Shown here in pieces: positions 2,388 to 20,181 of a DNA stretch of 21,713 nt; position 1 is the first letter of the stretch, and the number at the start of each line of letters is the position of its first letter. The notes beneath the pieces are model-generated. The model was not told the DNA's origin and made no database searches. It was given only the letters and a program-made list of their open reading frames with translations. Source of the DNA: a virus; the IMG/VR virus record IMGVR_UViG_3300048080_000657, one strand, 5' to 3'. The translations under genes were made by a program, and so were the position numbers.

Positions 2388-3232
2388 TATGCTCTCCTGA
2401 AGTCGAAACGGCCCGCGTTTTCGACGATCGCGATGGTTCCGCCGAACGTGTCGGCACCGTCCGCCCCCAGGCGATCGAGGGCGAGATTGATCTTGTCTGC
2501 CGCCGCCATGAGCGCCGCGGAGAGCGTGAAACTCATCTGGTCCATCCGTTTGTCGGTTCCGATGACCGCAACCGTCTGCAGCAGTGTCTCATCGGCGGCC
2601 TTGCTCGTCAACTCGCCGTTGGCGATGTACCGGCAGGTGAGGCGCATCCGGACGTTTCCGTCCGCGGCGGCCGTGAACACAAAATAAGGAATCTGGATGT
2701 CCGGGTTCACCGTCAGGTCGATGTTCCGAGGGATGAGGAACGTGGTGACGACGCCCCTCGTGACTCCATCGATGAGATTGAACCCGAAGACGTTGTCTTC
2801 GGAGACGCGGCTTGGGCTGGGCGGCGGCGATGCAACCCACTCGACGGGATCCGAGACATTGGCGGTGCCGGAGAAACCGCTCACGCCAGAGATTCCGCTG
2901 TAGCCGGACGTCCCTGATGCGCCGGAGTAGCCAGAGACGCCACTGTAACCAGAGACCCCCGAGAAGCCCGAGGCTCCCGAGGCGCCGGAGTAGCCAGAGA
3001 TCCCGGAAAACCCGGATGCGCCGCCTGGCGCTCCGGAAATGCCGGAGTAGCCGGATAAGCCGGGGGCGCCGGGGGTGCCGCCGCCGCCCGAGAACGGGAA
3101 GCCAGCTACCCGGAGTTCCGGGCAGAGGAGCCGTGCGAGTTCGCAGAGGTCTCCGAGGCTGACGGGGTCGCCGGCCCATAGAGTTTTTCCCTGCTGCGTC
3201 TTGACGGAGCCGTCGGGCCGGATCGTCGCCAT
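2387..3232 (-). CDS. Spike/fibre protein with (SGX)n stalk and C-terminal beta-rich domain
   Basis: 281 aa: N-terminal GDPVSLGDLC motif, about 65 aa of SGY/SGF/SGI repeats, then a beta-strand-rich C-terminal domain. Paralogous in layout to the 939..<1 gene. Confidence 0.85.
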   Translation of the reverse strand: MATIRPDGSVKTQQGKTLWAGDPVSLGDLCELARLLCPELRVAGFPFSGGGGTPGAPGLSGYSGISGAPGGASGFSGISGYSGASGASGFSGVSGYSGVSGYSGASGTSGYSGISGVSGFSGTANVSDPVEWVASPPPSPSRVSEDNVFGFNLIDGVTRGVVTTFLIPRNIDLTVNPDIQIPYFVFTAAADGNVRMRLTCRYIANGELTSKAADETLLQTVAVIGTDKRMDQMSFTLSAALMAAADKINLALDRLGADGADTFGGTIAIVENAGRFDFRRA

Positions 3233-11539: not shown

Positions 11540-12009
11540 TTTTTTTCTTTCGCAGACCGGGGTTTCCGTGCCCCCTTGAGCGGCGAGGTACATGCGCTCT
11601 GCGTCTTCGTGAGGAGCAGATTGAGGCGCCCGTCGATCCTGTCCAGTCGCTCGCGGAGTTTCGGAATCTCCCCGGGGCCGAGGCGCCGGCGCGCGAGGGC
11701 AAGATTGAGGCTCTTAGCGTCCTCGGCTACGAGCCTGGCGAGGCGGGCGTTCTCTCCCATAGCGCCGTTCTGCTCGAGTGTCCGGGCCGCTATCCCCGCG
11801 AACCGCGCAGCCGTGTAGACCCCGGTCGCGACGTCGCGCAGGTCGACGCGCGCCCCCCGAGCCCTCGTCGCGCGTCCCTCTGAGACCAGGTAGCGAGCAA
11901 GCGTGATCCCGCAGCCGGCGTGCATGACCTGGTTGACTGCGGTCATGCAGCGCCCTGCGTGAGCGGCGATCTCCTTCGCCTGCGCCTCCGTGAGCGTGAG
12001 CTTCCTCAT
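11536..12009 (-). CDS. Hypothetical basic helical protein (157 aa)
   Basis: ATG at 12009 with GGAGGAGGA RBS and ATGA overlap with the upstream stop. Reads MRKLTLTEAQAKEIAAHAG... Confidence 0.7.
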   Translation of the reverse strand: MRKLTLTEAQAKEIAAHAGRCMTAVNQVMHAGCGITLARYLVSEGRATRARGARVDLRDVATGVYTAARFAGIAARTLEQNGAMGENARLARLVAEDAKSLNLALARRRLGPGEIPKLRERLDRIDGRLNLLLTKTQSACTSPLKGARKPRSAKEKK

Positions 12010-12584
12010 TCCTCCTCCGGGCTTCGGCGGGAGCCGCCCTCCGTGCACTCCCCATCGACCATGACGGAACCCTCTACTAGAAAACTCATGAAGGAAGGAA
12101 TCTCCAGCTTCTCCGGGAACGGCTCGCCGCGCCAGTAGCTCGTGGCCATCCGCCATGCCTCCTCGGCCTGGCGAATCTCAGGCCATCTCTCGACGAGCGC
12201 ATCCACCCAGCGCTCGTCCGTCATCGTCCGCAGGGCATCCCTCTTGGGAGTCACGTACCAACAGTAACGCCCCTCCCCTGGGGGATCCACCATGAGCTCC
12301 CGAGGCGCGTACATCGTAGCGTAGATCTTCCTCGCCGGCGCATGCGTGGGCCACGGGACGATGACGATCGAGCACATCCGGTCGGGGAGCCCGTGGAAGA
12401 AGGGGTCGCGCTCGGCCCTGCGCTCCTCCTCCGCCAAGATGCGCGCCTCCGCAAGGAGTTGCTCTACCTCCAGGTGGTCGTGCCCGAGCGCCTCCACGGC
12501 GCTTTGGTTCTCCTCACAGAAGCGGCGCGTGTCCACGAGGTCGCCCTTGCGGAAACGCCGGTCCGTGTAGAAGACGTTCGGCAT
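12006..12584 (-). CDS. Hypothetical protein (192 aa), leaderless
   Basis: ATG 6 nt downstream of an extended -10 element. Normal globular composition. Confidence 0.75.
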   Translation of the reverse strand: MPNVFYTDRRFRKGDLVDTRRFCEENQSAVEALGHDHLEVEQLLAEARILAEEERRAERDPFFHGLPDRMCSIVIVPWPTHAPARKIYATMYAPRELMVDPPGEGRYCWYVTPKRDALRTMTDERWVDALVERWPEIRQAEEAWRMATSYWRGEPFPEKLEIPSFMSFLVEGSVMVDGECTEGGSRRSPEEE

Positions 12585-12590
12585 GCAAAG

Positions 12591-12618
12591 ATTCTACCAG
12601 ATCAGCCGGGAGAGTCCA
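12591..12618 (-). promoter_or_regulatory. Extended -10 promoter, leftward
   Basis: TGGACT, 16 nt spacer, TAGAAT (12596-12591) preceded by TGn. Confidence 0.65.
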
Positions 12619-12723
12619 GCGCAGGACGCGCCATCCGATACAACACTCTCAACCTGTAGTGTGCGGCTGCCCGTGGAACCACAAGAATCGGCTTTTATTT
12701 TTCGCGCCGGTGTCGCTGGTCGC

Positions 12724-12751
12724 TTGACACTTCTCCTTATCGCGCTAGACT
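12724..12751 (+). promoter_or_regulatory. sigma70-type promoter for the replication operon
   Basis: TTGACA (12724-12729), 16 nt spacer, TAGACT (12746-12751), with an AT-rich tract upstream. Confidence 0.75.
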
Positions 12752-12757
12752 TCACCC

Positions 12758-12862
12758 GCGCGACGAACGCACCAGGACCCCGAGTCTCTCGGCCCGTGCC
12801 GTCGCCACACTCCGGCATGCGTTCGTCGCGCAGCCGGAAGGCGGCACGGGTCGCGATACTCG
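12758..12862 (+). ncRNA. Structured 5' leader of the rep gene (alternative or pseudoknotted helices)
   Basis: 14-bp perfect complement between 12758-12771 and 12818-12831 crosses a 23-bp imperfect helix between 12781-12803 and 12840-12862. Confidence 0.55.
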
Positions 12863-12912
12863 TGGTTGCGCTCGCGGTCTCCGTGTAGTGGATACTGGCC
12901 CTGGAGAGCCTC

Positions 12913-14676
12913 ATGGCGGCACCGACACCGAGGGAGTTCTTTGAAGCCCTCTGGTCCGATATCCGAGGCGGCGACATCCTTCTCAGGCTGATCGGATGCG
13001 GACAGGATTCCGAGGTCGAGGTCCGCGATGTCAGGTTCGCATGGCCTGCCGGCATAGACGAGATGCTCGGTCGGGCTTTCATGGAAGCCGGCTGGAACGC
13101 CTACTACGGGATCGGCATACGCTCGGTCCAAGGAACCGGGCCGCATAAGGTGTTCGCCGTGCCCGCCCTCTGGCATACGTTCAACCTCAACGTCGTTCCC
13201 CTGGACAAGGCTGTCGGGGCGATCAAGGCGTTCCCATTGAGGCCGTCCGCGGGCTTTCGCGCGGGCGACGTCCTGACGGCCGTCTGGTTCATTGAAGGAT
13301 CCTTCTGCGGAGAGACGGAGTTGCGGGGTGTCTGGCCGGCGAACCTCAAGCTTGCCGCCAAGCTCATGGCGTCCCTGGGAGAAGCCGGCGGGCACGAGGA
13401 TCCCCTGCTCGTGAAGGCCAACCTAGCCGTGGAGCATCGCCAACCGCAAGGGGTGCTACGGGTTCCAGGCTCGACGAACTACGAGACGAGCCAGCCTCAA
13501 GCCGTCGAGTTCGTCTCGTGGAACCCGGGCCTGCGTCACGATTTCGAGCAGTTCTACAAAATCCTTGTGGACACGCCTGCCGTCGACAAGGAAGAACCGA
13601 AGGTCGAGCCGGCGAAGCCGACCAAGCCAAAGCAGGCTGCTGTGCCCGACGAGGACGAGGATGGCCCCAAGCCTAGGGACATCGCGACCGACCTCAACCA
13701 GAAGCTCGCCAACGCCATGACGAAGGTCTGGATCGAAGGCTTCCGCGAGAAGATAGCCATGCTCGTGGCCGGTGGCCTTGCCCACGGGAACTACACCAAG
13801 GAGGCGGCGCTGCGGCTCGTACGTGCCGTCTGCACGCTGACCGGGGACCCCGATATTCCGCGCTTCGAAGAGATCATCGAACGGACCTTCAAGAGGCACG
13901 ACGACGGGGACCGTGTTGCGGGATGGCCCACGCTCGAGAAACTGATCGACGAGTTCCCTGGTGCGCTCCGCGACGAGGCAAAGAGGGCGTTCGAACTCAT
14001 CCGAAAAAGCGTCCCGAAGCCGCCGAAAGGCGGGGGCGGGGGTGGAAGCAACGGCCGCGGCAGGGCCGACGAGCCCGACTTCGACATCGTCGAACTCGTG
14101 CGGTACACGAGCGAACCCGCCCGCTATAGGGTACACCTGAAGCTCCATGCCGAAAAGGCTGGAAAGACGGACCTCGATGTCCATGTCGAGGAGGGTGACG
14201 TCTACTCTTTCGATGCCTTCCGCGAGAAGACCTTCGGTCAGGCACACATTTACCTCGCCAAGGTCAGCCAGACGGCTTGGGAAGTGCTGGTGGAGAAGGC
14301 ACCGTTCAAGATCGAGGAGGCTCCTCCAGAGGCGAAACCGTCCGGGGCGATCGCCTCGGCGCTCGAGGAGTTTGTCGAGGACAAGAAAGAGGACCCGGAG
14401 TTGGGTGACCTGAAGAGCTACCCTGGCTATGACGAGACGGATGTCTTCTTCAGGCTCCCCACCTTCAAGGGCTTCCTCAAGGACCAGGGGGTGAGATTCA
14501 CGGACCGCGAAATCCTGCACCAGATCAAAGAACTGGGCTGGAAGCGGGAAACTAAGCGGTTTGGGCAGGCAACCGCGAAAATCTGGCTCAAGCCACTGCA
14601 GAACGGGCACACGGAAGAGAAGCCACCGGAAGGCCTGTTCGAACCCGGCACCGATGCATCTGGTGGGATGGCGTGA
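12913..14676 (+). CDS. RepB-like AEP primase homolog with degenerate catalytic motifs, PriCT-like and C-terminal wHTH-like regions
   Basis: AYYGIGIR, ALW, PS, VLRVPGSTN scaffold of RepB-type primases and a PriCT-like helical segment (...VAGWPTL). The expected DxD is replaced by ALWHTFN and SGxGxHxYW by RAGDVLTAVW. Confidence 0.75.
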   Translation: MAAPTPREFFEALWSDIRGGDILLRLIGCGQDSEVEVRDVRFAWPAGIDEMLGRAFMEAGWNAYYGIGIRSVQGTGPHKVFAVPALWHTFNLNVVPLDKAVGAIKAFPLRPSAGFRAGDVLTAVWFIEGSFCGETELRGVWPANLKLAAKLMASLGEAGGHEDPLLVKANLAVEHRQPQGVLRVPGSTNYETSQPQAVEFVSWNPGLRHDFEQFYKILVDTPAVDKEEPKVEPAKPTKPKQAAVPDEDEDGPKPRDIATDLNQKLANAMTKVWIEGFREKIAMLVAGGLAHGNYTKEAALRLVRAVCTLTGDPDIPRFEEIIERTFKRHDDGDRVAGWPTLEKLIDEFPGALRDEAKRAFELIRKSVPKPPKGGGGGGSNGRGRADEPDFDIVELVRYTSEPARYRVHLKLHAEKAGKTDLDVHVEEGDVYSFDAFREKTFGQAHIYLAKVSQTAWEVLVEKAPFKIEEAPPEAKPSGAIASALEEFVEDKKEDPELGDLKSYPGYDETDVFFRLPTFKGFLKDQGVRFTDREILHQIKELGWKRETKRFGQATAKIWLKPLQNGHTEEKPPEGLFEPGTDASGGMA

Positions 14677-14862
14677 AATCCCCTTATATATATACCCCTT
14701 TTCTGGAGATACACGGACCACCCCTTATGATCAATCGACTTTCAGGGGGAACATCGGTAACGCGGTCACAACAGGTGTATCTAGTTAATTGCCAAAAACT
14801 TACAGTGTTACCGGTGGGGTGGGTTATCGGGAACAGAAAACCGGTATATATATAAGGGGATT
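14677..14862. other. Putative replication origin: AT-rich region bounded by inverted repeats
   Basis: Perfect 20-bp IR AATCCCCTTATATATATACC (14677-14696 / 14843-14862), extending to 27/29 bp. Inner CGGTAAC/GTTACCG IR (14755-14761 / 14807-14813) flanks an AT-rich core. Confidence 0.65.
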
Positions 14863-18337: not shown

Positions 18338-18565
18338 ATGACCGCGCAGGAGCTCAAGCCCAGGATTGAGGGGAAGGCCGGAGGATGCTTCCTCTGCAAG
18401 TGGACCGTCGAGGACCTGGACAAGAACGGGAAGCTGACTAACCATCCCGGGCAATGCAACGACGGCAACGACCTCTTCCCGGCCCGGGCCAAGGTGGCGC
18501 ATGCCTGGCTCGAGGGAGTCCTGACGCACGACGAGACGAAGGAGCTGCTTGAGACCTTAAAGTAG
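18338..18565 (+). CDS. Small hypothetical protein, possibly metal-binding
   Basis: 75 aa, AGGAG RBS, CFLC...HPGQC. Confidence 0.7.
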   Translation: MTAQELKPRIEGKAGGCFLCKWTVEDLDKNGKLTNHPGQCNDGNDLFPARAKVAHAWLEGVLTHDETKELLETLK

Positions 18566-18577
18566 ACTAGGTATACT
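18549..18577 (+). promoter_or_regulatory. sigma70 promoter with overlapping palindromic operator
   Basis: TTGAGA, 17 nt spacer, TATACT. AGTAGAC-TAG-GTATACT at 18561-18577. Confidence 0.75.
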
Positions 18578-19694: not shown

Positions 19695-20156
19695 GTGTCC
19701 ATCGACGAGACCCCGATCGCAGAACGCGCCCTGAATGGCGCCAAGCTGCTGGGCCAGCTATGGCGCGCGGGCGAGCGTTGCGCCTCCGGCTGGTCGCTCG
19801 GAAAGGAGGCCGGATGCTCCTGCGGAGAGGCTGCCACGAAGTTCTGCAAGGCGAGAGAGCTCTGGGTTTCACTCGCCGTAATCGACGGACGGGATCCACT
19901 CGAAGGCGAGTTCGCCCTTGCGCTCATGATGAAGGCGTCCGAGTGGGATGCAACGGGTCTTGTCATGACCGCAGAACCCAGCCAAATCGGCCGGGTCACG
20001 ATCGGCCCGAAACCTGCGTCCGAGGTTACGATGTCAGAGCTCGCGTCGCTCGCGCGGTCTCCGGACTCCGCGGAGGGAATCTTGCGGCTCATGAGGAAGT
20101 TCCCCGGCTCCGTGATGGATCTATCGCCCGTCGCAGGCGATCAGAAATCCCGTTGA
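19695..20156 (+). CDS. Hypothetical protein (153 aa)
   Basis: GGAGGAG RBS before GTG. Fills the gap after bet. Confidence 0.7.
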   Translation: MSIDETPIAERALNGAKLLGQLWRAGERCASGWSLGKEAGCSCGEAATKFCKARELWVSLAVIDGRDPLEGEFALALMMKASEWDATGLVMTAEPSQIGRVTIGPKPASEVTMSELASLARSPDSAEGILRLMRKFPGSVMDLSPVAGDQKSR

Positions 20157-20181
20157 CGAAGTAAAGTACACCCGGTATACT
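20153..20181 (+). promoter_or_regulatory. sigma70 promoter with overlapping palindromic operator
   Basis: TTGACG, 17 nt spacer, TATACT. AGTACAC-CCG-GTATACT at 20165-20181. Confidence 0.8.

Follow-up and report, generated by a model that had tools for sequence, protein, structure and literature searches.

A probable cis-acting leader RNA with two crossing helices at the head of a replication operon of large uncultivated phages

Results and Discussion

Gene arrangement around the leader

The window, by which we mean the whole 21,713-nt stretch of viral DNA that was analysed (IMG/VR record IMGVR_UViG_3300048080_000657), has a G+C content of 64%, lies on a 216-kb contig and looks like part of a large phage. 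GC3 frame analysis placed minus-strand genes up to position 12584 and plus-strand genes from 12913 onward. The 328-nt gap between them is a divergent control region. A coding region across 12585–12912 was rejected, as the frame analysis called no gene there and the linkers of the element vary among related loci by lengths that are not multiples of three. The first plus-strand gene encodes a 587-aa primase-like protein and is followed by genes for a UvrD-like helicase, an SF2 helicase and RecT; the element described here heads this replication module. The 587-aa protein has a weak match to a PHROG primase (Table 1), and its homologue in L070, one of the related loci, weakly matched PF16793 (RepB_primase); searches of PDB, Pfam and NCBIfam gave it no name. 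The genes upstream of the gap are mostly unknown, and one of them, for a collagen-repeat protein, matched tail-fibre PHROGs.

Two other features of the plus-strand gene block were noted. An AT-rich island (14677–14862), with inverted repeats that include TATATATA at each of its ends, separates the primase-like and helicase genes and is a possible origin or terminator/promoter region. Two further plus-strand promoters of the type found in the gap (TTGAGA or TTGACG, 17 nt, TATACT), at 18549–18577 and 20153–20181, precede recT and a small-gene cluster, and model R1 found no such leader after them.

Table 1. Positions of the leader, its arms and the neighbouring signals in the window
Feature	Position	Strand	Basis
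Divergent promoter-like site for the minus-strand gene 12006–12584	12591–12618	-	9/12 matches, TG extension
Sigma-70-like promoter: -35 TTGACA (12724–12729), 16-nt spacer, -10 TAGACT (12746–12751)	12724–12751	+	10/12 matches
Arm A (helix P1, 5' strand), from the predicted transcription start	12758–12771	+	Repeat finder; both-side changes
Linker L1, 8–9 nt in the window, 7–33 nt in relatives	12772–12780	+	
Arm B (long hairpin P2, 5' strand); can be extended to 12777	12781–12803	+	Repeat finder; covariation
Linker L2, holding TCCGGC (12811–12816), which pairs with GCCGGA in the rod-shaped fold	12804–12817	+	
Arm A' (helix P1, 3' strand), in the apical part of P2	12818–12831	+	Repeat finder; duplex energy; covariation
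Linker L3, 8 nt, including GCCGGA (12833–12838)	12832–12839	+	
Arm B', 3' strand of P2	12840–12866	+	Repeat finder; covariation
GGCCCTGGAGAG, 12 nt, holding the Shine-Dalgarno sequence of the primase-like gene	12897–12908	+	Invariant in 9 lineages
First operon gene, 587-aa primase-like protein	12913–14676	+	PHROG primase, C-terminal part, 5e-8 (weak)

Arms and predicted folding of the element

An earlier note, made from the letters of the window, had described a 14-nt 5' segment perfectly complementary to the apex of a long hairpin, a 23-bp helix with an inner TCCGGC/GCCGGA pair, and a crossing of the two pairings. All three descriptions stood when re-examined. Arm A (GCGCGACGAACGCA) is complementary to arm A' at 14 of 14 positions, both as read directly and as pair I2 of the repeat finder. 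The inner pair lies within the long hairpin, and the 23 positions of the long helix (12781–12803/12840–12862) comprise 19 Watson-Crick pairs, 2 G·U pairs and 2 mismatches; the repeat finder returned this helix as pair I1, 25 nt with 84% complementarity (12777–12801 and 12842–12866). The arms follow one another in the order A, B, A', B', so the pairings cross. In the minimum-energy fold CCAGG of linker L1 can also pair with CCTGG at 12900–12904.

The note had further placed the start of the element at a predicted transcription start, and the sigma-70-like promoter agrees with this: the position of TTGACA-16-TAGACT gives an expected start at 12758, and arm A begins 7 nt past the -10 hexamer. Only 0.1 such promoter sites were expected in shuffled sequences. 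The 113-nt RNA had a predicted folding energy of -63.5 kcal/mol (z = -4.17), which none of 200 shuffles equalled, and the z-score of a 158-nt fold was only -2.66. Pairing of the 5' segment with the apical loop gave a duplex of -33.9 kcal/mol, which none of 300 dinucleotide shuffles of the loop matched.

Conservation of the layout in related loci

Metagenomic homologues of the 587-aa protein were collected by word-based and profile searches, and their contigs were then compared. The resulting 12 distinct loci are the window and 11 relatives on uncultivated phage contigs, in which the homologues of the downstream protein are 35–47% identical or less. The layout of promoter, A at +1, B, A' and B' was found in all 12, including L070, which was obtained last, after the pattern had been defined. 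In the 11 related loci the promoters read TTGAC(A/T) or TTGATT, 16 nt, and TAnAnT or TATCCT, and in all 12 arm A begins 6–9 nt past the -10 hexamer. The sequence of arm A differs among lineages, some having GAACGC-type cores and others being unrelated, and each arm is complementary to its own A'. The leader is about 105 nt long in the window and 105–145 nt in the relatives, and the B:B' helix keeps a length of 18–24 pairs, about two helical turns.

Between the leader and the primase gene other genes were found in four lineages, namely one for an HNH protein in L048, one for a 376-aa protein in L052 and L057, and one for a 358-aa protein in L054. Because the leader stays beside the promoter when the first gene differs, we assign it to the promoter-proximal start of the operon and not to the primase gene. 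The description in the earlier note of a leader of a rep operon is thus sustained in that the element adjoins the operon promoter; a tie to the rep or primase gene itself did not hold.

Neither the region nor the primase-like protein had a BLAST match in phage and plasmid collections, and related-locus searches in viral, metagenome and genome contigs gave no relatives, with none in IMG/VR. Matches to the DNA pattern at 41 metagenome and 9 IMG/VR loci were rejected as chance; these loci encode no homologue.

Some relatives carry features of their own. In L051 about 180 extra nucleotides (2322–2500) lie between B' and the start codon and contain a second GC-rich hairpin (2320–2370) and a T6 run (near 2443–2448). 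In L070 a three-codon mini-ORF (ATG ATC ACG TAA; 2413–2436) that has a strong GGAGG site lies between B' and the primase gene; none was seen there in the other loci. The UvrD-like helicase genes of some relatives, such as L048 (4325–6674) and L052 (4841–6824), contain intein/homing-endonuclease domains (Hint, Intein_splicing, LAGLIDADG).

Covariation of both helices

A covariance model was built from three relatives with B:B' as its sole structure, and it found the window at E = 3e-11. Covariation was scored on the resulting six-sequence alignment, in which the A and A' columns were aligned by sequence only; this alignment was used because the helices came out misaligned with MAFFT alone. L048 and L059 were not reached by model R1, whose alignment A7 also contained reverse-strand matches, so those loci were analysed per sequence. 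The two-helix structure was paired in 92% of the cells of the six-sequence alignment. Pairs changed on both sides numbered 13, against 5.4 ± 1.5 in shuffles (0/500 as many) and 0–3 in slid controls, statistics that are indicative, the sequences being few and partly related (L052 is close to L057, and L047 fairly close to L054), while the pattern is consistent. These changes fell in both helices, 6 of the 14 pairs of A:A' and 7 of the 24 pairs of B:B'.

Duplex energies, which need no alignment, were compared across 11 loci. The cognate partner was best or nearly best both for the 5' segment with the apical loop and for B with B'; the means for cognate and other partners were -34.4 and -24.5 kcal/mol in the first case and -40.9 and -26.2 kcal/mol in the second. 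The check that the earlier note had proposed, covariation in homologous leaders, therefore came out in favour of both crossing helices, and in all 12 loci the strand order is that of an H-type pseudoknot (S1a-S2a-S1b-S2b) with both stems covarying. On this comparative evidence we take the two helices to be real and to be kept by compensating mutations.

Terminator-like hairpins and the start-codon region

In three AT-richer relatives arm B' is directly followed by a run of T residues, T8 within a T-rich run of 12 in L048, T8 in L056 and T6 in L059, and A-rich tracts precede B in the same loci. To judge by its sequence, B:B' in these three looks like an intrinsic terminator placed between the promoter and the first gene. 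The window has no U-run after 12862–12866, nor do 8 of the 11 relatives, and a scan of the window gave 0 terminator-like sites, the simple scan used being blind to hairpins with large loops. Since the window and other GC-rich members lack a U-run, termination cannot be claimed for them and is not universal in the family. The two-turn length of B:B' is more than a terminator needs and would fit a double-strand RNase site as well.

No loop sequence is conserved throughout the family, which makes a metabolite-binding riboswitch unlikely. A leader peptide was rejected: the ATG-led frame at 12817 is not conserved, having 4 codons in L001 and no ATG in L005. The search for an antisense RNA that the earlier note had called for was negative, in that a promoter scan, a weak test, showed no minus-strand promoter-like site in the leaders; antisense control was set aside accordingly.

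In 9 lineages with primase-like proteins of only 35–47% identity, the 12-nt motif GGCCCTGGAGAG is invariant and stands 4–6 nt ahead of the start codon for that protein. Outside the window it was found at 3145–3156 in L001, at 867–878 in L005, and around 2482–2497 in L047, L051, L052, L056, L057 and L059. Because it stays with the primase gene when that gene is internal to the operon, as in L052 and L057, it is a property of the translation start and not of the leader fold; its appearance suggests an extended ribosome-binding site or a translational operator that has been conserved. A scheme in which B pairs with the GGCCCTGGAGAG start region as an anti-Shine-Dalgarno sequence, with B' as its decoy, was rejected as a general mechanism. 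Pairing of B with this region was significant in 1 of 7 loci (L047, 0/300 shuffles as good), borderline in the window (17/300) and L005 (24/300), and not above chance in L001, L051, L056 and L059; moreover, the motif remains with the primase gene when another gene intervenes.

Predicted order of folding and the attenuator-type model

Transcripts cut before B' had A:A' in the minimum-energy fold in 9 of 11 loci, with B partly tied up in small local helices; the cut-transcript folds of L048 and L056 are uninformative, as the automatically chosen core (7–8 bp) was not the main A helix. At full length the nested optimum was the B:B' rod, better by 7–17 kcal/mol in 10 of 11 loci and by 0.7 kcal/mol in L001. 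Given the order of synthesis, P2 would form after P1, a sequence that follows the logic of a kinetic switch. L059 shows the switch design explicitly. The heptamer GCGTCCG and its complement CGGACGC each occur twice there (sites 2352–2358, 2395–2401, 2430–2436 and 2445–2451), and arm A has a choice of two partners, the apical loop and the 5' part (top) of B', the 3' strand of the terminator. Arm A is in this way complementary to the terminator as a classical antiterminator would be. Complementarity of arm A to B' itself was found in L059 only.

From sequence comparison, the element is probably an undescribed structured leader RNA that acts in cis at the start of the replication-gene transcript, and the most likely mechanism, to which we give a probability of roughly one half, is that of an attenuator-type leader folding during transcription. 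A strong sigma-70-type promoter would drive transcription of the leader, which opens the replication operon in a clade of uncultivated large phages. In helix P1 the apical loop of P2, the imperfect hairpin of roughly 23 bp, would pair with nucleotides 1–14 of the transcript. P1 would form once A' had been made, with B closed into a loop and partly tied up; as B' emerged, the more stable P2 rod would compete with the early fold or be added to P1. In the AT-richer relatives, where P2 with its A-tract, stem and U-tract may serve as an intrinsic terminator, the choice of fold, under some putative regulatory input, would set how many polymerases enter the operon, which is attenuation. The GC-rich version in the window, which has no U-tract, might instead bring about pausing or U-poor termination, protect the 5' end of the mRNA, or be a site of processing.

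A possible static pseudoknot

The earlier note had offered a pseudoknot and mutually exclusive folds as the two ways to read the crossing. A:A' and B:B' share no nucleotides and so need not exclude each other. The energy of the A:A' duplex, added to that of a fold with A and A' kept single-stranded, lies 6–16 kcal/mol under that of the best nested fold if no pseudoknot penalty is charged, and coexistence of the helices is thus possible on energy grounds. The helices might stand together as a knotted 5' domain that is itself the functional state and not one side of a switch. Such a domain would protect the mRNA from nucleases that depend on a free 5' end, or would act in cis on polymerase for read-through of the long operon. 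The crossing order in 12 of 12 loci, the 5' strand flush with the predicted start in every locus and the tie of the element to the operon head rather than to a single gene all suit this reading, and put of phage HK022 is a precedent for nascent promoter-proximal RNA acting on polymerase (PMC9378689). The geometry is less favourable, however. The 8-nt L1 of the window is probably too short for a compact, coaxial H-type fold with a 23-bp stem, and the helices would then have to lie side by side. Further, in several loci the pairing of the 5' segment reaches B itself, which would prevent full B:B' pairing, and the U-runs after B' in three relatives point to termination and not to protection. We regard the static fold as unlikely.

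The related proposal of a truly interleaved RNA, its 5' nucleotides locked in the apical loop of a two-turn hairpin, is also a tentative one with the odds against it. It would constitute a new class of cis-acting element in giant phages, which could reprogramme polymerase for processive read-through of the replication operon; alternatively, the leader RNA could silence sibling transcripts through the wobble-free A/A' pairing and so be an RNA-based timing or immunity device.

A possible processed or trans-acting RNA

The B:B' rod might also be an RNase III-type site, or the leader might be terminated or processed to give a stable small RNA with A' exposed in its loop. The conserved 18–24 pairs of B:B', which exceed what termination needs, agree with both forms of the idea. 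In the second, A' would pair in trans with arm A, at the 5' end of leaders still being made, and shut down the replication operon, much as in the immunity of satellite phage P4 with its CI RNA and seqA/seqC. The position of A' in the apical region of a very stable hairpin is suited to such a role, as is the perfect 14-nt complement, which favours fast RNA-RNA pairing, and in one summary the replication genes of P4 are controlled by a leader-derived RNA that pairs with complementary leader sequences (PMC4825925). Against this, neither the window nor the related loci hold a second target copy of A or A', no Rfam match to RNAs of the C4, SeqA or IsrK type was obtained, and there is no evidence of a lysogenic lifestyle or of processing. 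This explanation is distinctly unlikely.

RNA-level and DNA-level constraints on the two helices

The two helices differ in how they tolerate imperfect pairs. B:B' contains 29 G·U pairs and 7 A·C single mismatches, and its stability is higher on the plus strand in 9 of 11 loci. G·U pairing on the plus strand only indicates RNA, or single-stranded plus-strand DNA, in the sense of the genes. A:A', on the other hand, has no G·U pair among about 150 pairs in 12 loci, compared with about 12% G·U in B:B'; its few defects are G·A, A·A, C·A and terminal U·C, and its energy shows no strand preference. A wobble-free helix is unusual for RNA and would be expected of inverted copies of a protein- or primase-recognition site. 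A:A' and B:B' seem to be under different kinds of constraint, and the presence of a wobble-free and a wobble-rich helix in one element offers a test case for separating constraints at the RNA level from those at the DNA level.

These features raise the possibility that A and A' work in DNA, as two 14-bp arms with the same sequence on opposite strands that are recognised by a protein, B:B' being a separate RNA or DNA hairpin. The arms might serve autorepression as paired operators at +1 and +61, or else mark where the neighbouring RepB-like primase begins priming. Arm A covers the predicted transcription start and a primase-like gene comes next, and the RepB' primase of RSF1010 initiates on two inverted repeats (PMC8567376). 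Several properties of the arms do not fit. Their centre-to-centre spacing ranges from about 56 to 98 bp with no helical phasing, their sequence changes in nearly every lineage while the start is always at +1, and each is 14 nt long with no hairpin of its own, compared with 40 nt for the ssi sites of RSF1010. No further arm copies occur at other promoters, and arm A as a global operator was rejected, as neither the window nor the loci hold an extra copy even when 2 mismatches are allowed. In four lineages a non-primase gene adjoins the element, and the interleaving with a hairpin biased to the plus strand is left unexplained. We consider a DNA-level role for A/A' very unlikely.

That the repeats are chance inverted repeats in GC-rich intergenic DNA, with no function, is effectively refuted by the covariation, together with the recurrence in 12 loci, the compensatory changes (0/500 shuffles) and the blind confirmation in L070, even though GC-rich sequence folds well in general and the z-score of the 158-nt fold is small.

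Comparison with known systems

The suggestion in the earlier note that the RNA is possibly undescribed was strengthened by the searches; control of copy number or of the lytic switch, which the note also proposed, is a putative role. With Rfam 15 at gathering thresholds there were 0 matches in the window and in 10 homologous loci, and at E<=10 the segment 12500–13000 gave noise only, two miRNA models and DUF3800-VI at 15–17 bits against thresholds of 35–124. No description of this interleaved leader motif was found in the literature, and primase leaders are not mentioned in a survey of structured RNAs in phages (PMC10690425).

The analogy drawn in the earlier note with plasmid rep genes controlled by their leaders did not hold up. 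In the repZ and repA leaders of IncI-alpha and IncB plasmids a hairpin loop pairs beside the rep ribosome-binding site, the pairing needs translation of a leader peptide, and an antisense RNA blocks it. What the element shares with these leaders is that a hairpin loop ahead of a replication gene pairs over a long range. Unlike them, it has no conserved leader peptide and no antisense promoter; the partner of its loop is the 5' end of the transcript rather than the ribosome-binding region, and its first gene varies.

Attenuators and riboswitch platforms, like the element, are promoter-proximal leaders with a strong hairpin before the first gene, and in L048, L056 and L059 the likeness extends to the U-tract. 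In the pyrG leader of B. subtilis the 5' end of the transcript acts as the antiterminator. As in attenuators and in pyrG, an alternative pairing, here a predicted one that would be made earlier, involves the 5' end, and in L059 arm A is complementary to the 3' strand of the terminator. The differences are that the 5' strand of the family pairs with the apical loop, that the stem is about 23 bp, and that most members are without a U-tract; the element also has no ligand pocket, leader peptide or known binding protein of the kind found in attenuators and riboswitches.

HDV-like ribozymes have the same strand order as the element, P1-P2-P1'-P2', with a 7-bp P1, P3/L3, P1.1 and a catalytic C. Such a ribozyme was rejected as an identity for the element, with no Rfam match even at E<=10, helices of 14 and 23 bp and an L3 of only 8 nt. 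The leaders of T7 and of lambda N contain RNase III sites in long imperfect hairpins. The leader of T4 gene 32 has a small, compact H-type pseudoknot that nucleates binding of the gene's own protein, as the survey describes it (PMC10690425). The element resembles these phage leaders, which precede replication genes and control translation or processing through a 5' pseudoknot or a long imperfect hairpin, and differs from that of gene 32 in the length of its helices, 14 and 23 bp.

P4 immunity, with its CI RNA and seqA/seqC, is the subject of work by Sabbattini et al. in 1995. As summarised in another source, it relies on premature termination, with a processed, trans-acting CI RNA derived from the leader and two target copies that flank it (PMC4825925). 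The P4 leader and the element both contain mutually complementary segments at the head of a replication (primase) operon. The element, unlike P4, has a single A/A' pair, with no further copy at up to 2 mismatches in the window and the loci, and shows no Rfam similarity. In RSF1010, ssiA and ssiB are 40-nt inverted repeats with hairpins of their own, which serve as signals for the RepB' primase inside an origin that has iterons and an AT-rich region (PMC8567376). The element likewise has inverted repeats beside a RepB-like primase gene, and its A/A' pairing is strand-neutral and wobble-free; its arms, however, are 14 nt long with at most a 3-bp hairpin of their own, start at promoter +1 and are interleaved with an RNA-like hairpin. 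The repeat finder showed no iterons in 12550–12950.

HK022 put consists of two tandem stem-loops (PMC9378689), and conAn2 of conjugative plasmids is a region of roughly 300 nt with a GC-rich box and stem-loops (PMC8191782). Like the element, both are structured RNAs that head a long operon of a mobile element and are poorly conserved in sequence among relatives. They act in cis on transcription, and the analogy with the element is functional only, without structural likeness, as neither put nor conAn2 has crossing helices.

Judged by its sequence and conservation, then, the element is a new RNA family of a known kind, that of cis-acting 5' leaders, and its interleaved architecture is unusual. 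Among bacterial leaders it is out of the ordinary for the first nucleotides of the transcript to form a 14-bp helix that is interleaved with a two-turn hairpin. The work adds a covariation-supported RNA family absent from Rfam at the entry to the replication genes of very large uncultivated phages, and, at about 110 nt plus a sigma-70 promoter, the element offers a compact model for the way in which capture of a hairpin loop by the 5' end would bear on termination, stability or polymerase behaviour.
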